Below, piece by piece: positions 6,141-44,385 of a stretch of 44,385 nucleotides of DNA (the stretch's first letter is position 1; each line of letters opens with the position of its first letter). The DNA lies in the sequence record NC_008152.1; one strand, given 5' to 3'. The notes under the pieces were generated by a model. That model saw only the letters and a program-made list of their open reading frames with translations. It searched no databases and had not been told where the DNA came from. This stretch comes from Escherichia phage K1-5. Position numbers and translations under genes: made by a program.

Positions 6141-6182
6141 CCTTCCTCTTATTACCACTCAGAGGAAGGGCAGACCTAGGTT

Positions 6183-12511: not shown

Positions 12512-12579
12512 GTTATACTCAAGGTCACTTACGAGTGGCCTTTATGAATAACTTATTCCTACTTATTTTGTCTAACATG

Positions 12580-19510: not shown

Positions 19511-19633
19511 ATGCTTGAGATGATTCTCAAGCCTTCTTCTCCTAAGGTGACTAAGACTCATGAAGAGTTAATCGTTGATGAAGTTAAGCGTTACATCATG
19601 GATTGTGTCAGAGCACAACTGGTGGTCCAATGA
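19511..19633 (+). CDS. Small protein (40 aa; track ORF from 19451)
   Basis: GAAGGA RBS 6 nt upstream of ATG 19511. Confidence 0.3.
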   Translation: MLEMILKPSSPKVTKTHEELIVDEVKRYIMDCVRAQLVVQ

Positions 19634-20157
19634 TACGTCCAGCCTCCTTCCTAGATATTCCTGAGATTATAAACCTTGGGAATAAATATGTGGAAGAGGA
19701 AGTCAAGGTTGTAGCCCACCACTCAGCCTCATGGAATGCAGAACAAAGTGCCATAACCTTTGTGCATCTCTTAATAGAGACCCACCACTCAGCCTCATGG
19801 AATGCAGAACAAAGTGCACATAACCTTTGTGCATCTCTTAGTAGAGAAGATTTATCCCTATGGGTTGCTGTAGATGAAGGGCAGATTGTAGGGTTCCTGT
19901 GGGCTGGCTATCACGAGTTGGCCCCTTGGACACCTGTAAGAGTTGCCTCTGACATTCTCTTTTATATTATACCAGAGAGGCGAGGAACACTACTTGGTAT
20001 GCGTCTCATCAAAGCCCTAAAGCAATGGGCTAGTGATAATGAATGCTCTGAGGTTCGCCTGTCTATCGCCTCTGGTATTAATGAAGAACGTGTCGGACGT
20101 ATGTATAAGCGACTTGGCTTTGAACCGTTTGGCACTGTGTATAACCTGAAGTTCTAA
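19630..20157 (+). CDS. GNAT-family N-acetyltransferase-like protein with an internal 22-aa tandem duplication
   Basis: Track ORF 19603; C-terminal IIPERRGTLLGMRLIKAL...SGINEERVGRMYKRLGFEP fits the GNAT motif A/B pattern; duplicated HHSASWNAEQSA block. Confidence 0.55.
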   Translation: MIRPASFLDIPEIINLGNKYVEEEVKVVAHHSASWNAEQSAITFVHLLIETHHSASWNAEQSAHNLCASLSREDLSLWVAVDEGQIVGFLWAGYHELAPWTPVRVASDILFYIIPERRGTLLGMRLIKALKQWASDNECSEVRLSIASGINEERVGRMYKRLGFEPFGTVYNLKF

Positions 20158-20166
20158 GGAGATAAC

Positions 20167-20373
20167 ATGGGTGTTGTAAAGAAAGCATTTAAGGCTATCG
20201 GTCTTGCTCAAGATGCACCACGTATTGAAGCCAAAGTCCCAGCACAGCAGCTTGAGCGTAAGCCTGAGACTGAAGCTGAAGATATTCAAATTGGTGCAGG
20301 GGATGATGCTACTGCATCTGCAAAAGGTAAGCGTGGCCTTGTCCGTCCGGTAGCTTCTAGCTTGAAGGTGTAA
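20167..20373 (+). CDS. Small protein (68 aa) upstream of portal
   Basis: TAAGGAGA RBS; sits where T7 has the small virion proteins gp6.7/7.3. Confidence 0.45.
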   Translation: MGVVKKAFKAIGLAQDAPRIEAKVPAQQLERKPETEAEDIQIGAGDDATASAKGKRGLVRPVASSLKV

Positions 20374-20374
20374 T

Positions 20375-21925
20375 ATGAAACAGAGCATAGATTTGGAGTA
20401 TGGAGGTAAGCGGTCTAAGATACCTAAGCTATGGGAGAAGTTCTCCAATAAACGTAGCTCTTTCCTTGATAGGGCGAAGCATTACTCCAAATTAACCTTG
20501 CCCTATCTGATGAATGACAAAGGTGATAACGAGACTTCGCAGAATGGATGGCAAGGTGTAGGTGCTCAGGCAACCAACCATCTAGCCAACAAGCTAGCGC
20601 AAGTACTATTCCCTGCACAGCGTTCCTTCTTCCGTGTAGACTTAACTGCACAAGGTGAGAAGGTTCTTAATCAGCGTGGCCTGAAGAAGACAGAGCTAGC
20701 TACCATCTTCGCTCAAGTGGAAACACGGGCAATGAAAGAGTTAGAGCAACGTCAATTCCGGCCTGCTGTAGTAGAAGCATTTAAGCATCTTATTGTTGCT
20801 GGCAGCTGTATGCTATACAAGCCGAGCAAAGGTGCAATCAGTGCTATCCCAATGCATCACTACGTAGTTAACCGTGATACCAATGGCGACCTGTTAGACA
20901 TTATCTTGCTACAAGAGAAAGCCTTACGTACCTTTGACCCAGCTACACGTGCGGTAGTAGAGGTTGGCCTGAAAGGTAAGAAGTGCAAGGAAGATGACAG
21001 CGTTAAGCTGTACACACATGCTAAGTATCTTGGTGATGGATTTTGGGAACTCAAGCAATCTGCTGATGATATCCCTGTGGGTAAGGTGAGTAAAATCAAA
21101 TCAGAAAAGCTACCTTTCATCCCATTAACTTGGAAGCGAAGCTATGGTGAGGATTGGGGTCGACCTCTTGCAGAGGATTACTCCGGTGATTTATTCGTTA
21201 TCCAATTCTTATCTGAAGCGGTTGCCCGTGGTGCTGCGCTGATGGCAGATATCAAGTACCTGATTCGTCCTGGTGCTCAAACTGATGTTGACCACTTTGT
21301 TAACTCTGGCACTGGTGAGGTTGTCACTGGTGTAGAAGAAGACATCCATATTGTACAGTTAGGTAAGTACGCAGACCTCACACCTATTAGCGCGGTTCTA
21401 GAGGTATACACTCGCCGTATCGGTGTTGTCTTCATGATGGAGACAATGACACGCCGTGACGCCGAACGTGTTACTGCTGTAGAAATCCAGCGAGATGCGT
21501 TAGAGATTGAGCAGAACATGGGTGGTGTATACTCCCTCTTTGCTACTACTATGCAATCGCCAGTAGCGATGTGGGGTCTGCTGGAGGCAGGGGAGTCCTT
21601 CACTAGTGACTTAGTGGACCCTGTGATTATCACAGGTATTGAAGCTTTAGGACGCATGGCTGAGTTGGATAAACTGGCTAACTTTGCTCAGTATATGTCA
21701 CTGCCATTACAATGGCCTGAGCCTGTCCTAGCTGCTGTGAAATGGCCTGACTATATGGATTGGGTGCGTGGTCAAATCTCTGCTGAACTGCCGTTCCTTA
21801 AATCGGCTGAAGAGATGGCACAAGAACAGGAAGCACAGATGCAAGCACAGCAAGCACAGATGCTTGAAGAAGGTGTGGCTAAGGCCGTGCCGGGTGTAAT
21901 TCAACAAGAACTTAAGGAGGCGTAA
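20375..21925 (+). CDS. Portal (head-tail connector) protein, T7 gp8-like
   Basis: 516 aa; directly upstream of scaffold and capsid genes; size and synteny only. Confidence 0.8.
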   Translation: MKQSIDLEYGGKRSKIPKLWEKFSNKRSSFLDRAKHYSKLTLPYLMNDKGDNETSQNGWQGVGAQATNHLANKLAQVLFPAQRSFFRVDLTAQGEKVLNQRGLKKTELATIFAQVETRAMKELEQRQFRPAVVEAFKHLIVAGSCMLYKPSKGAISAIPMHHYVVNRDTNGDLLDIILLQEKALRTFDPATRAVVEVGLKGKKCKEDDSVKLYTHAKYLGDGFWELKQSADDIPVGKVSKIKSEKLPFIPLTWKRSYGEDWGRPLAEDYSGDLFVIQFLSEAVARGAALMADIKYLIRPGAQTDVDHFVNSGTGEVVTGVEEDIHIVQLGKYADLTPISAVLEVYTRRIGVVFMMETMTRRDAERVTAVEIQRDALEIEQNMGGVYSLFATTMQSPVAMWGLLEAGESFTSDLVDPVIITGIEALGRMAELDKLANFAQYMSLPLQWPEPVLAAVKWPDYMDWVRGQISAELPFLKSAEEMAQEQEAQMQAQQAQMLEEGVAKAVPGVIQQELKEA

Positions 21926-22845
21926 TGTCTTTCTCATTTACTGAACCGTCAACCACTCACCCTACTGCTGAAGAGGGTCCGGTAGAAACCAAGGAGGTAA
22001 CAACTGATGCTGCTACTACTGATGCTCCTGCTGACGCTGGCACTTCTGTACAAGATGACAATGCTGGTGCACAACCTACTGAAGACACCGGAGGAGAAGC
22101 TTCTGGACAGCCTTCAGAAAAAGGAGACAATGGCGGAGAGAATGGTGAACCTAAGCCAGATGATACCGCGACCGACACTGAGGAAGTGCAATACTTCTTC
22201 GGAGAACATGAAGTAACAGTAGACATCCCACAGGATGTAACTGACAGCCTTAAAGAGAAAGGCATTGATGCCAAGCAGGTTGCCAAGGAACTCTATTCCA
22301 AAGGTGGCAAGTTTGAACTGTCAGATGCAACCAAGCAGAAATTGTATGATGCTTTTGGCAAGTTTGCGGTAGATGCTTACCTATCAGGTCTAAAGGCTCA
22401 AAATGAAGCCTTCTTCCTGAAAGAAGCCAACGCAGCTAAAGAGTTGGAAGCAGCTAACACCCAACGCTTCTCTGATGTTTCTAAGGAAATTGGTGGCGAA
22501 GAAGGTTGGTCCCGTCTTGAGGAGTGGGCACTTGAAGCGCTGTCTGATGACGAACTAATGGCATTCAATGCGGTGATGGAATCTGGCAACCAGTACCTGC
22601 AACAATATGCTGTTCGTGAACTGGAGGGTCGTCGTAAGCAGGCACAGGGGGATGATAAGCCATCCCTGATTGAGCCATCAGCACCTGCTAAGGCTAATGA
22701 AGAGAATGGCCCACTGACGCGAGATCAGTACGTTCAAGCAATCGCAACTCTTAGCCAGAAGTACGGCAATGACCGTAAAGCTATGGCAGAAGCTCAGGCT
22801 AAACTGGACGCCCGTCGCCGTGCTGGCATGGCTCGCGGTATCTAA
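21925..22845 (+). CDS. Capsid assembly scaffolding protein, T7 gp9-like
   Basis: 306 aa, acidic, coiled-coil-rich; between portal and capsid; ATG overlaps portal stop. Confidence 0.75.
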   Translation: MSFSFTEPSTTHPTAEEGPVETKEVTTDAATTDAPADAGTSVQDDNAGAQPTEDTGGEASGQPSEKGDNGGENGEPKPDDTATDTEEVQYFFGEHEVTVDIPQDVTDSLKEKGIDAKQVAKELYSKGGKFELSDATKQKLYDAFGKFAVDAYLSGLKAQNEAFFLKEANAAKELEAANTQRFSDVSKEIGGEEGWSRLEEWALEALSDDELMAFNAVMESGNQYLQQYAVRELEGRRKQAQGDDKPSLIEPSAPAKANEENGPLTRDQYVQAIATLSQKYGNDRKAMAEAQAKLDARRRAGMARGI

Positions 22846-30997: not shown

Positions 30998-31007
30998 TAC
31001 CTAACTC

Positions 31008-31037
31008 AAGGCTTGTCTCACATGTGAGACAGGTCTT
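31008..31037. promoter_or_regulatory. Extended hairpin around palindrome copy 5
   Basis: aaggcttGTCTCACATGTGAGACaggtcttt; between gp15-like and gp16-like genes. Confidence 0.6.
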
Positions 31038-31061
31038 TATGATAGGCACTATGGAGGAATT

Positions 31062-34000
31062 ATGGAACAAGACATTAAGACTAATTGGGCTGGATATGTC
31101 CAGTCTACTCCTGAGCCGTTTTCTATTGAGGCGGCTCCGGTATCGGCTCCTACGATACGCCAGCGTAATGAGTTACAAGAGCAAGTTCTTGAAGCTAAAG
31201 CTGACGCTGATATCTTAGGTGCTGTAGGTGCTGCCTTCCAGAATGAGTGGTTGGCATTCGGAGGCAAGCGGTGGTATGACCGTGCCACTGCTGATTTCAC
31301 ACCTCAACCAGACTTTGAGATACAACCTGAGCAACGTGAAGCACTACGTTTCAAATATGGTACGGATATGATGCAGACAATCACTGAGGGTGTTCGTTCT
31401 GAGGATGAATTGAACTTCCGTATTCAGAATGCGGATGAAGACCTTGAGCGCAATAAGCGCATTGCTCAGGCTGGCTGGGTTGGCTCTGTGGCGACGATTG
31501 GCGCTGCTGTGCTTGACCCTGTGGGATGGGTTGCCTCTATTCCAACCGGTGGTGCCGCTAAAGTTGGACTCGTAGGCCGTGCTGTGCGTGGCGCTATCGC
31601 CGCTGGCGTGAGTAATGCCGCTATTGAATCCGTATTGGTCCAAGGTGACATGACTCGTGATTTAGATGACATTATGGTAGCACTGGGTTCCGGTATGGCT
31701 ATGGGTGGCGTTATTGGCGCTGTAGCGCGTGGTAGGGCCACTAAGCTCAGTGAGCAAGGTGATGACAGGGCTGCTAGCATTGTGCGCAGTGCAGACGCAG
31801 GGGACCGCTATGTTCGTGCTGTTGCCGATGACAGTATCGGTGCGATGCGTGTTAAGGGCGCAGAGGTTCTCACTGAGGGTGTATTCGATATCTCCAGTAA
31901 GAGTGAAGACCTACTGAAAACCTTGCAACGAGAAGGTAATGCGATTGATATGACACCTCGCCGTTGGGCTGGAACTATGTCTGCCCTCGGTACTGTCGTG
32001 CACTCATCTAAAGATGCAAGTATCCGAGGCCTTGGTGCTCGTCTGTTTGAATCCCCACAAGGTCTAGGTATGCAGAAGGCATCTGCTAGTCTTATGCAGA
32101 ATACTAACTTAAATCGCCTGAAATCTGCTGATATGAACCGCTTCAATGATGGGTTTGATTTGTGGCTTAAAGAGAATAATATCAATCCAGTAGCAGGGCA
32201 TACCAACTCTCATTATGTACAGCAATACAATGAAAAGGTGTGGGAGGCAGTGCGTATTGGCATGGATGAGTCTACACCTAAATCTATCCGCATGGCTGCT
32301 GAGGGACAACAGGCTATGTACAGAGAGGCGCTGGCTTTACGTCAACGTTCTGGTGAAGCGGGATTTGAAAAGGTAAAAGCCGACAACAAATATATGCCTG
32401 ATATCTTTGATAGTATGAAAGCCAGACGTCAATTCGATATGCACGATAAAGAAGACATCATCGAACTTTTCTCTCGTGCCTACCAGAATGGCGCTCGTAA
32501 GATTCCAAAGGAAGCAGCAGATGAGATTGCACGAGCACAGGTAAATCGCGTTGCTGATGCTACCTTAACTGGAAAGCTTAGTTTTGAAAAGGCAATGTCA
32601 GGTCAGACTAAGGCAGAGTATGAAGCTATCATGCGTAAGGCAGGCTTCAGTGATGAAGAAATTGAAAAGATGATAGAAGCTCTGGATAACAAAGAAACCA
32701 GAGATAACATCTCTAACCGAGCTAAAATGAGTTTAGGATTAGATGTTACTCAAGAATACAATGGCATTCGTATGCGTGACTTCATGAATACCAACGTGGA
32801 AGAGCTAACAGATAACTATATGAAGGAAGCAGCAGGTGGCGCTGCATTGGCTCGCCAAGGCTTCTCTACCTATCAGGCTGCACTTAATGCAATTGACCTT
32901 GTAGAGCGAAATGCACGAAACGCGGCTAAGGATAGCAAGGCTAGTTTGGCATTAGATGAAGAGATTCGTCAGATGCGAGAAGGTCTTCGCCTGATTATGG
33001 GCAAGTCGATTGATGCAGACCCACAGGCTATATCTACTAAGATGATGCGTCGTGGTCGTGATATCACAGGTGTGCTTCGCTTAGGTCAAATGGGCTTCGC
33101 ACAGCTAGGTGAACTTGCCAACTTTATGGGTGAATTTGGTATTGCTGCAACTACTATGGCTTTAGGTAAGCAATTCCGCTTCACCTCTAAGGCGTTGCGT
33201 AATGGCGATGGCTTCTTCCGAGATAAGAACTTAGCTGAGGTTGAGAGAATGGTGGGGTACATTGGTGAGGATAACTGGCTAACAACTAAGGGTGCACGTC
33301 CTGATGAATTTGGTGATGTAACCACAGTAAGAGGGATGATGGCTCACTTTGACCAATCCATGAACTCAATACGTCGTGCTCAAACCAACCTATCACTCTT
33401 CCGCATGGCACAGGGTTCTCTGGAGCGAATGACTAATAGGCAAATAGCTTTGTCTTTCATTGACCACCTTGAAGGCAAGAAGATTATTCCTCAGAAGAAA
33501 CTGGAGGAACTTGGTCTTACTCAGGAGTTCATGACTAACCTACAGAAGCACTATGATGCTAACTCTAAAGGTTCTGGCTTGCTTGGCTTTGATACAATGC
33601 CTTATGCCATGGGTGAAACTTTAGCTAATGCTATTCGTCGTAAGTCAGGTCTAATCATCCAACGTAACTTCATTGGTGATGAAGGTATCTGGATGAACAA
33701 AGCACTAGGTAAGACATTTGCACAGCTTAAGTCATTCTCTCTTGTATCTGGTGAGAAGCAATTTGGTCGAGGGATTCGCCACGATAAAATTGGTCTTGCT
33801 AAGAAGACAGCTTACGGGTTTGCTTTGGGTTCAATAGTGTATGCGGCAAAAGCCTATGTGAACTCTATTGGGCGAGAAGACCAAGATGAATATTTGGAAG
33901 AGAAGTTATCGCCTAAAGGGTTGGCCTTTGGTGCAATGGGTATGATGAGTACAACTGCTGTATTTAGTCTAGGTGGAGATTTCTTAGGTGGCCTAGGTGT

Positions 34001-34247
34001 TCTACCTTCCGAACTCATTCAATCACGCTATGAAGCAGGTTTCCAAAGTAAGGGTCTGATTGACCAAATACCTCTGGTTGGCGTTGGTGCAGATGCAGTA
34101 AATCTGGCTAACTCAATCAAGAAGTATGCAGAAGGTGACACAGAAGGTGTAGATATCGCTAAGCGAGCACTCCGTCTTGTGCCACTTACCAATATAATAG
34201 GTGTCCAAAACGCATTGCGTTATGGCTTAGATGAACTGGAGGATTGA
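31062..34247 (+). CDS. Internal virion (core) protein, gp16-like
   Basis: 1061 aa; Gly/Ala-rich hydrophobic segment GWVGSVATIGAAVLDPVGWVAS; synteny. No obvious transglycosylase motif at the N-terminus. Confidence 0.7.
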   Translation: MEQDIKTNWAGYVQSTPEPFSIEAAPVSAPTIRQRNELQEQVLEAKADADILGAVGAAFQNEWLAFGGKRWYDRATADFTPQPDFEIQPEQREALRFKYGTDMMQTITEGVRSEDELNFRIQNADEDLERNKRIAQAGWVGSVATIGAAVLDPVGWVASIPTGGAAKVGLVGRAVRGAIAAGVSNAAIESVLVQGDMTRDLDDIMVALGSGMAMGGVIGAVARGRATKLSEQGDDRAASIVRSADAGDRYVRAVADDSIGAMRVKGAEVLTEGVFDISSKSEDLLKTLQREGNAIDMTPRRWAGTMSALGTVVHSSKDASIRGLGARLFESPQGLGMQKASASLMQNTNLNRLKSADMNRFNDGFDLWLKENNINPVAGHTNSHYVQQYNEKVWEAVRIGMDESTPKSIRMAAEGQQAMYREALALRQRSGEAGFEKVKADNKYMPDIFDSMKARRQFDMHDKEDIIELFSRAYQNGARKIPKEAADEIARAQVNRVADATLTGKLSFEKAMSGQTKAEYEAIMRKAGFSDEEIEKMIEALDNKETRDNISNRAKMSLGLDVTQEYNGIRMRDFMNTNVEELTDNYMKEAAGGAALARQGFSTYQAALNAIDLVERNARNAAKDSKASLALDEEIRQMREGLRLIMGKSIDADPQAISTKMMRRGRDITGVLRLGQMGFAQLGELANFMGEFGIAATTMALGKQFRFTSKALRNGDGFFRDKNLAEVERMVGYIGEDNWLTTKGARPDEFGDVTTVRGMMAHFDQSMNSIRRAQTNLSLFRMAQGSLERMTNRQIALSFIDHLEGKKIIPQKKLEELGLTQEFMTNLQKHYDANSKGSGLLGFDTMPYAMGETLANAIRRKSGLIIQRNFIGDEGIWMNKALGKTFAQLKSFSLVSGEKQFGRGIRHDKIGLAKKTAYGFALGSIVYAAKAYVNSIGREDQDEYLEEKLSPKGLAFGAMGMMSTTAVFSLGGDFLGGLGVLPSELIQSRYEAGFQSKGLIDQIPLVGVGADAVNLANSIKKYAEGDTEGVDIAKRALRLVPLTNIIGVQNALRYGLDELED

Positions 34248-35209
34248 TGAGTTATACTTTCACAGAACATACAGCCAATGGTACGCAAGTCACCTATCCT
34301 TTTAGCTTTGCTGGTAGGGATAAAGGTTATCTTCGTGCCTCAGATGTGATAGTGGAGTCTCTTCAAGGTAACACTTGGATTGAAGTTACATCTGGCTGGC
34401 AACTAACTGGCACGCACCAGATTACTTTTGATGTAGCACCAGTTGCAGGTTTGAAGTTCCGTATTCGAAGGGAAGTACAAAAAGAATATCCATACGCTGA
34501 GTTTGACCGTGGTGTTACCTTGGATATGAAGTCTTTAAATGGTTCTTTCATTCATATACTGGAGATTACACAGGAGTTACTTGACGGGTTTTATCCAGAA
34601 GGATACTTCATTAAACAGAATGTAAGCTGGGGCGGCAATAAGATTACTGATTTGGCTGATGGCACAAATCCGGGAGATGCAGTAAATAAAGGGCAGCTTG
34701 ATGCCATCGACAAGAAGCATACAGATTGGAACGCCAAACAGGACATTGAGATTGCTGGCCTTAAGGCTGGTATGACTTCTGGTATTGCGCACAGAACTGT
34801 TCCTTGGTACACGATAGCCCAAGGTGGTGAGATTTCCGTAAAACCACCTTATGAATTTCAAGATGCACTAGTTTTCCTTAATGGGGTATTGCAGCACCAA
34901 ATTGTAGGCGCATACTCTATAAGCAACAACACTATCACTTTCGCAGAGCCGCTTGTGGCTGGTACAGAGGTGTATGTGCTGATTGGTAGTCGTGTGGCTA
35001 CATCTGAACCTAATATTCAGTTGGAGTTGAACTTTGACTTAGTAGAAGGCCAACAAGTAGTACAGATTGGCTCTGCATTTAAGTACATTGAGGTCTACCT
35101 TGATGGATTATTACAACCTAAACTTGCTTATCAGGTAGACGGTGACATTGTTACTTTCTCAGAAAGAGTACCAGAATGCCGGATGACTGCTAAGATTATC
35201 ACAGCATAA
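34247..35209 (+). CDS. Tail-fibre adaptor protein (homologue of the T7 gp17 N-terminal tail-attachment domain)
   Basis: 320 aa; GNKITDLADGTNPGDAVNKGQLDAI resembles T7 gp17 RRIVNLANAVDDRDAVPFGQL; ATG overlaps upstream stop. Confidence 0.75.
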   Translation: MSYTFTEHTANGTQVTYPFSFAGRDKGYLRASDVIVESLQGNTWIEVTSGWQLTGTHQITFDVAPVAGLKFRIRREVQKEYPYAEFDRGVTLDMKSLNGSFIHILEITQELLDGFYPEGYFIKQNVSWGGNKITDLADGTNPGDAVNKGQLDAIDKKHTDWNAKQDIEIAGLKAGMTSGIAHRTVPWYTIAQGGEISVKPPYEFQDALVFLNGVLQHQIVGAYSISNNTITFAEPLVAGTEVYVLIGSRVATSEPNIQLELNFDLVEGQQVVQIGSAFKYIEVYLDGLLQPKLAYQVDGDIVTFSERVPECRMTAKIITA

Positions 35210-37755: not shown

Positions 37756-38034
37756 ATGGCTAATGATTATAGTAGTCAACCATTAACAGGTAAGTCTAAG
37801 AGAAAGCAGGTACAACCTGTAAGTGAAGAACTAATGCTTCCGGTGCTCAAAAAAGAGGAAGTTAGTAAGAAAAGCAATGTTATTAATGATGCCACCAAAT
37901 CAGGTAAACAGAAAGGGGCCATGGTGTGCCTTGAAGTGAAAGGTGGTGTATTGAAGATTGCTATCGCGGTTGATGGCAAAGAAGATTCAGAGTGGAAGTT
38001 AGTAACAGTGGAACCAACTGTTAACCCAGTTTAA
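37756..38034 (+). CDS. Hypothetical protein (92 aa), paralogue A
   Basis: Track ORF 37690; ATG 37756 after AGGAGAG; shares KKEE..SK...SGKQKGAMV.LE...IAVA motif with the next ORF. Confidence 0.55.
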   Translation: MANDYSSQPLTGKSKRKQVQPVSEELMLPVLKKEEVSKKSNVINDATKSGKQKGAMVCLEVKGGVLKIAIAVDGKEDSEWKLVTVEPTVNPV

Positions 38035-38052: not shown

Positions 38053-38343
38053 ATGGCTAAATATGGTACTACAGGTTCTGTTACTGGTCAGGCTTTTCGA
38101 GTAAAAGCAGTACAAACTATTGCAACGGCAATCCCGATGCCTGTTGTTAAAGAAGAAGACCTTAAGAGTAAAGACCACCCTATCAACATCAAACATTTAT
38201 CAGGTAAACAGAAAGGTGCAATGGTTGCTCTTGAGAAAGGTGACACAACCTTACATATTGCTGTTGCACGTGGTAGTGAACCCACAGACCCTTGGGATGT
38301 AACTGGTATGGAAAAGGACGCTGTTACTCCAGCAGGGGTATAA
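38053..38343 (+). CDS. Hypothetical protein (96 aa), paralogue B
   Basis: TAAGGAGG RBS; SGKQKGAMVALEKGDTTLHIAVA. Confidence 0.6.
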   Translation: MAKYGTTGSVTGQAFRVKAVQTIATAIPMPVVKEEDLKSKDHPINIKHLSGKQKGAMVALEKGDTTLHIAVARGSEPTDPWDVTGMEKDAVTPAGV

Positions 38344-44151: not shown

Positions 44152-44385
44152 TCGCCCTCGCCCTCGCCGGGTTGTCCCCATAGGGTGGCCTGAGGGAATC
44201 CGTCTTCGACGGGCAGGGCTGATGTACTCCTTGTCTAGTACAAGGGAGGCGGAGGGAACGCCTAGGGAGGCCTAGGAATGGCTTAGTGGTGGACAAGGTG
44301 ATTACCTTAGTGAAGCCTCTTAGTGCATTCCTGAGGCCATTCAGGGCGTTTATGAGGGATTGACAGGGTGTGAGGGCGTGGGCTA
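44152..44385. repeat. Right direct terminal repeat (234 bp)
   Basis: Exact copy of 1..234 read by eye; window ends exactly at the repeat end. Confidence 0.95.

Follow-up and report, generated by a model that had tools for sequence, protein, structure and literature searches.

The window analyzed here is the whole stretch of 44,385 nucleotides contained in the sequence record NC_008152.1, which represents the complete genome of Escherichia phage K1-5. The K1-5 reference record, which we take to be AY370674 / NC_008152, is widely used as a type genome of the SP6/K1E-like phages, and the original genome paper is reportedly that of Scholl et al. 2004 (J Mol Biol). Around the locus under study the genes are arranged in the order ligase, small ORFs, acetyltransferase, gp28 and head-tail connector, which is the layout of the SP6/K1E-like podoviruses (genus Vectrevirus). 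The acetyltransferase is encoded by gene 27 (19630..20157, plus strand), which was assigned to the GNAT family using the ORF list, Pfam and an exact look-up, and which sits between the ligase and the head-tail connector, as do its orthologues. The deposited gene 27 protein has 175 aa (AAR90069.1 / YP_654128.1). It matched PF00583 with 40.9 bits (cut-off 20.7) and PF13508 with 38.1 bits (cut-off 27). The profile phrog_1249 (acetyltransferase) was also matched with high significance (E = 1.4e-52), but the match was broken into two stretches, whereas a form of the protein with only one copy of the repeat described below was matched in a single stretch covering residues 1-151. In the place of the acetyl-CoA pyrophosphate-binding motif, after beta4, the protein has the sequence PERRGTLLG with an R-G-x-x-x-G spacing, compared with the textbook Q/R-x-x-G-x-G/A, and its R96 and G97 do not vary across the aligned family. 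Within the Vectrevirus gp27 family of GNATs (phrog_1249), gene 27 is not unusual.

An imperfect tandem duplication of about 66 bp with a length difference of 1 nt between the copies had been noted inside this gene, and it was confirmed with copies of 66 and 67 nt that match at 65/67 positions. The repeat is present in the span given earlier, 19717-19850, the limits of which are off by 2-3 nt; the real span is 19715-19847. The repeat search and the alignment to relatives identified copy 1 (19715..19780, plus strand, 66 nt) as the extra copy and copy 2 (19781..19847, plus strand, 67 nt) as the copy in the native frame. The direct-repeat search revealed that 19715-19751 is 100% identical to 19781-19817 (37 nt, spacing 66), and that 19752-19780 is identical to 19819-19847 at 28/29 nt (spacing 67). 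Both differences between the copies are thus confined to the last 29 nt of copy 1. The first is an A, equivalent to A19818 of copy 2, that is missing between 19751 and 19752 of the plus strand, so that the alignment has GTGCCAT instead of GTGCACAT; direct reading placed this site outside the homopolymer runs of the unit (CCC, AAA and TTT). The second is at 19774 (plus strand), 6 nt before the junction, where the alignment showed an A in copy 1 and a G in copy 2 (G19841) and in all relatives.

At the junction (19780..19781, plus strand, direct reading) TAGAGA is joined to CCCACC. The two-copy junction string is CTTAATAGAGA directly followed by CCCACCACT, and its one-copy counterpart is GTTGTAG followed by CCCACC, running on to TAGAGA followed by AGATTT. 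The sequence across the K1-5 junction reads ...CTTAATAGAGACCCACCACT.... The junction is blunt, as the upstream boundary (GTAG to CCCACC) and the downstream boundary (GAGA to AGATTT) have no common boundary base, and direct reading of the duplication boundaries revealed no microhomology at the endpoints. A nearby GTAG...GTAG pair was considered as an endpoint repeat and was rejected, because it would make a 64-nt period, unlike the period seen. About 5e-14 exact 37-nt repeats would be expected by chance in 44 kb according to our own arithmetic, and the 66/67-nt repeat is the only close direct repeat of at least 24 nt in the K1-5 genome. Tandem Repeats Finder did not report it, even at a minimum score of 30, but the direct-repeat search and the reading of the sequence do show it. 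Copy 2 contains a small palindrome, TGCACA-TAACCTT-TGTGCA (19815..19833, plus strand), with a DNA fold of -4.8 kcal/mol and z = -1.9, and the base that is absent from copy 1 is the A in its 5' stem. Band compression at the palindrome as a cause of the missing A was given little weight, because the hairpin is weak. Inverted repeats flanking the duplication were not reported by the repeat search.

In the translation the peptide HHSASWNAEQSA occurs twice and is then followed by different residues, as had been noted, namely ITFVHLLIET after the first occurrence (copy 1, shifted frame) and HNLCASLSRE after the second (copy 2, native frame). Copy 1 encodes the inserted residues 30-51, i.e., HHSASWNAEQSA plus ITFVHLLIET, the final 10 of which are out of the native frame, and the peptide SAITFVHLLIETHH would be a marker of the two-copy K1-5 protein. 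The ancestral unit has 67 nt, which is not a multiple of three, and therefore a clean tandem duplication would shift the frame. Direct reading showed that after a perfect 67-nt duplication translation would stop 13 codons past the junction, after ...SLSRDPPLSLMECRTKCT. The frame survives because copy 1 is one base short, so that the net insertion is 66 nt.

One reading of this arrangement is that the K1-5 stock used for sequencing had really acquired a private mutation, a 67-bp duplication together with a compensating deletion of 1 nt from copy 1. The duplication would have arisen by template switching or illegitimate recombination and shifted the frame, and the deletion would then have restored it; alternatively, a -1 mutant would have undergone unequal recombination with a wild-type genome. 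The resulting GNAT would carry 22 additional residues between alpha1 and alpha2, 10 of them new, frame-shifted sequence. We regard such a mutation as possible but not as the probable origin of the repeat. It is favored by the net insertion of exactly 66 nt and by the lack of a stop codon in the shifted stretch. The lack of microhomology at the junction and the position of the deletion outside of homopolymer runs speak against it.

The distribution of the duplication was analyzed by comparison with relatives. A megablast search with the gene against 50,697 phage records yielded 64 relatives, which are 93-99% identical to it. For all 60 that were listed of these 64, the 555-nt query was aligned in two pieces on 489 nt, that is, on one copy. 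An 80-nt junction probe matched 71 phage records, none of them at an identity of at least 99%, and in the 8 that were listed it fell in two pieces on one 67-nt unit. In EEc4 and T145P2 the single copy is exactly copy 2. Thirty full-length orthologous genes from phage records and metagenome/Logan contigs were read base by base; all 30 are 462 nt long (153 aa), and nine of the 30 loci contain the exact 67-nt unit, once each. The 18 metagenome/Logan contigs with proteins identical to K1-5 gp28, portal or ligase all encode a 153-aa acetyltransferase. In two protein clusters at 90% identity (157 members) the other members listed all have 153 aa, with the exception of one 52-aa fragment. An insertion at the duplication site was found in 0/27 aligned family representatives, down to 51% identity, and copy 1 has no counterpart in eight whole relatives. 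The duplication is thus not a shared feature of the orthologues, as none of those compared has it.

The same was true on the level of exact matches. The 175-aa form was found by exact look-up on a single contig, which is the K1-5 record, and the contig index contained no exact match to the 175-aa protein, the scaffold protein or the product of a 62-aa ORF of K1-5. The junction pattern had 0 matches in viral, metagenome and genome contigs; the positive controls retrieved only 2 + 2 relatives there, and therefore this negative result carries little weight. A search for an independent K1-5 sequence found none: no phage record reached an identity of at least 99.5%, and the best genome-wide value was about 96%. 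Close direct repeats of at least 24 nt were absent from the genomes of the eight relatives (357 kb), which indicates that genuine events of this kind are rare in the group.

These comparisons also bear on the question of whether slippage or duplication has a hotspot here, or whether the site is even a programmed copy-number switch that varies the N-terminal region of the acetyltransferase among phages. The existence of the repeat and the weak 6-bp palindrome in the unit are in line with such a site. Against it, the identical 67-nt unit is present in nine loci and close variants in more than 100 orthologues, each exactly once, and the 27 aligned family representatives show no length variation at the site. 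In addition, the length of the unit is not divisible by three, and neither flanking microhomology nor inverted repeats were reported. The hotspot was rejected because the identical unit is single in every other genome examined, and we consider it very improbable.

When copy 1 is removed, the K1-5 gene is identical to natural alleles on six independent contigs except at position 19856, corresponding to a DNA identity of up to 99.8% (one mismatch in 462 nt). Base-by-base comparison revealed a C at 19856 (plus strand), 9 nt past copy 2, where 30/30 orthologous genes have a T, which results in a change from Phe to Ser. The Phe is F54 in the numbering of the one-copy protein and is invariant in the family alignment, and the Ser is S76 in the deposited protein. 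The C at 19856 is either one more sequence error of this region or a private mutation that damages the protein. Fifteen contigs were found to encode the one-copy protein with Phe. An exact look-up in about 15 billion proteins retrieved neither the one-copy protein with Ser, nor two-copy proteins with Phe or Val, nor the truncated product of a perfect duplication.

The structures of both forms were predicted with AF2. The one-copy model (pLDDT 90.1) has a canonical GNAT fold with the order beta1-alpha1-alpha2-beta2-beta3-beta4-alpha3-beta5-alpha4-beta6. Its first elements are beta1 (2-4), alpha1 (7-28), a loop (29-36), alpha2 (37-47) and beta2 (53-60), which is the predicted strand that contains F54, and the duplicated unit runs in this model from the alpha1-alpha2 loop through alpha2 into the first part of the loop before beta2. 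Removal of one copy, a check that had been suggested, thus restores a canonical GNAT, both in the continuous profile match and in the predicted fold. In the two-copy model pLDDT values are below 50 for the inserted residues 30-52, which loop out, the GNAT core is kept, and alpha2 is supplied by the native copy 2. A genuine duplication is in agreement with this prediction, in which the whole core is retained. Foldseek yielded 834 PDB matches at E <= 0.001, which were GNATs throughout among the matches shown. The structural neighbors were generic and included Naa60 as well as polyamine and phosphinothricin acetyltransferases, with 13-25% identity.

The quality of the record was assessed by a whole-genome comparison of K1-5 with eight relatives at 92-96% identity over about 41 kb. 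The missing A after 19751 turned out to be the only K1-5-private 1-nt indel in this comparison, and no private frameshifts were found elsewhere. The only K1-5 stretches without a counterpart in all eight relatives were 2106-2282, the duplication and 5 nt in a divergent region. The K1-5-private substitutions are 76% synonymous, showing that the record is generally accurate. The remaining record shows no sign of sequencing error, which is in favor of a genuine duplication, as are other real private features of K1-5, i.e., the 62-aa ORF at 2100-2288 and mosaic tracts. Furthermore, K1-5 shares only about 96% identity with its nearest relatives across the genome, so that it had time for private events.

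The private point anomalies of the region (19751/2, 19774 and 19856) are clustered within 105 nt around the junction, and 0 were found in the other approximately 960 nt of a 1.1-kb neighborhood. The chance that three of three anomalies fall into a 142-nt span chosen beforehand is about 0.002 according to our own arithmetic, a value that is indicative only, as the span was picked after seeing the data. Two further candidates for private changes were rejected: the C at 19644 is common to several contigs, and the GTG deletion at 20302 is a widespread polymorphism. The latter is an in-frame 3-nt difference in gene 28 (20167-20373), due to which gp28 has 68 aa in K1-5 and 69 aa in the eight phage relatives. 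Metagenome and Logan contigs frequently encode the 68-aa form (71 index blocks), so that it is a natural polymorphism. gp28 matches phrog_1320, which is annotated as "host range and adsorption protein".

Direct observation showed that the repeat is unique, how its two copies are built and that the anomalies are clustered. These findings favor, but do not prove, the assembly artefact that had been among the suggested explanations. From them we infer that the extra copy probably arose as an artefact during finishing, assembly or cloning for a Sanger-era record and would then be absent from the phage. A possible course of events is as follows. Two segments of the 2003-era record (reads, contigs or a rearranged clone) would have overlapped by the 67 nt CCCACC...TAGAGA and would have been set end to end without being merged, so that the overlap was entered twice. 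In the low-quality end of the upstream segment one A would have been dropped and one G miscalled as A, both within its final 29 nt. The net gain would by coincidence have been 66 nt, so that the ORF stayed intact and the error was not flagged at annotation. The true gene 27 would then have 462 nt and encode a canonical GNAT of 153 aa, and the genome would be 66 nt shorter.

A degrading end of the upstream read would explain why both differences between the copies lie beside the junction. One cause would thereby account for the duplication, the blunt join, the placement of the differences, the lone private 1-nt indel and its non-homopolymer site, and possibly also for the change from Phe to Ser at 19856. 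The position of the deletion outside of homopolymer runs counts for an artefact, because true slippage would be expected in such runs. That the insert is in frame would be luck, with a prior of about 1/3, but this chance is raised because an out-of-frame error would probably have been noticed on comparison with SP6.

Several points stand against an artefact. As the rest of the record looks accurate, a finishing error would be out of character. An assembler normally merges an overlap of 65/67 nt with a perfect stretch of 37 nt, and therefore a manual or compilation step must be assumed. The insert lies in the alpha1-alpha2 region, which according to the two-copy model may loop out and leave the fold undisturbed. 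In addition, copy 2 is free of errors, and 19856 lies 76 nt into the downstream segment, which is not the usual worst part of a read start.

A recent duplication, which had also been suggested, stays in consideration as the rival explanation, though it is less favored than the artefact and can be called possible rather than probable. For this, three or four rare events must have come together in a 142-nt span, and the rest of the gene equals natural alleles. No relative has any intermediate, and the intermediates are absent from the 15 billion proteins. The G to A change at 19774 and the change from Phe to Ser at 19856 would then also be real, perhaps due to relaxed selection on an accessory gene during laboratory passage. 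A Phe to Ser change at an invariant core residue fits poorly with a gene that was kept functional by compensation. Tandem repeats with at least 37 nt of perfect homology are recombinationally unstable in T7-like phages. As repeats of this length recombine efficiently, selection for function should lead to precise loss of the duplication far more often than to a compensating frameshift; without selection, the restoration of the frame would be a coincidence. Pierce, Kong & Masker 1991 (NAR 19:3901) reportedly dealt with the instability of such direct repeats in these phages. That the duplication is real, i.e., that a frameshifting 67-bp duplication was rescued by a 1-nt deletion and placed a 22-residue insert into the substrate-facing alpha1-alpha2 region of a conserved phage GNAT, is judged to be rather doubtful.

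The favored artefact belongs to a known class of errors, false tandem duplications at an unmerged overlap of reads or contigs. As in that class, the K1-5 repeat is present in one record only and its copies abut exactly, the differences are found only at the end of the upstream copy by the join and are accompanied by extra local anomalies, and independent assemblies of near-identical alleles all have one copy. Unlike the typical case, the K1-5 record is otherwise clean, and an overlap of this quality is normally merged by the software. A genuine event would resemble a suppressed frameshift in the logic of T4 rII, since +67 and -1 result in an in-frame insertion of 66 nt with a short out-of-frame stretch in between. 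It would differ from such cases because endpoint microhomology, an intermediate or a sibling are missing, because the deletion is not in a homopolymer run, and because loss of the duplication should be the favored route back to function in K1-5. The closest natural systems for the one-copy K1-5 form are the GNATs of SP6/K1E-like phages (Vectrevirus gp27), with which it has the length of 153 aa, the locus and the canonical fold in common. The deposited K1-5 protein, in contrast, has a 22-residue insert between alpha1 and alpha2 and Ser instead of the invariant Phe of beta2. The duplication is closest to a false tandem duplication; if real, it would be a textbook suppressed frameshift, and neither of the two is new in kind.

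The main value of the analysis is a data-quality flag on the K1-5 reference annotation. The gp27 of the record, with 175 aa, is probably a wrong version of a GNAT of 153 aa, and the stated genome length possibly exceeds the true one by 66 nt. Whoever models, clones or compares this acetyltransferase should preferably use the one-copy form with Phe54, unless the two-copy form is verified. If the duplication were true, it would be a modest but neat case of a duplication whose frameshift was rescued by a second-site indel, and of an innovation in protein sequence by duplication plus frameshift that was caught in the act in a phage accessory gene.

Several additional features were observed in the K1-5 genome. 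The 62-aa ORF at 2100-2288 encodes a signal peptide-like N-terminus (MKTLIGCFLLASLALAFTAKAG...), while 8/8 relatives carry a different small gene at this position; it is a K1-5-private cassette of the early region. At 22599-22650, within the scaffolding protein gene (21925-22845), there are private differences to the eight relatives, mostly at third codon positions, and one codon is CAG instead of GCT. Poor sequence quality was rejected as a reason for this cluster because of the third-codon-position spacing, and it has the look of a short tract taken over from a more distant relative (mosaic or gene conversion) rather than of a sequence error. About 200 of the 318 K1-5-private substitutions compared with the eight relatives fall into the region of about 31000-35000 (internal virion protein and tail adaptor region), which indicates a mosaic segment from a lineage outside these relatives. 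The genome ends are perfect terminal direct repeats of 234 nt (1-234 and 44152-44385). SP6-type promoter sequences (ATTTACTGGACACTATAGAAG) were found at 12577, 14587, 22849, 37590, 39252 and other positions, and four copies of the palindromic element AGGCTTGTCTCACATGTGAGACAGG at 6177, 8387, 9564 and 31009, which may be terminators or processing hairpins. Lastly, a 36-nt direct repeat with 83% identity and a spacing of 300 (37899-37934 and 38199-38234) falls into two adjacent small ORFs, which are annotated in the relatives as paralogous hypothetical proteins ("ACLAME 971"). As the ORFs are adjacent and paralogous, this repeat represents an old tandem duplication on the gene level.
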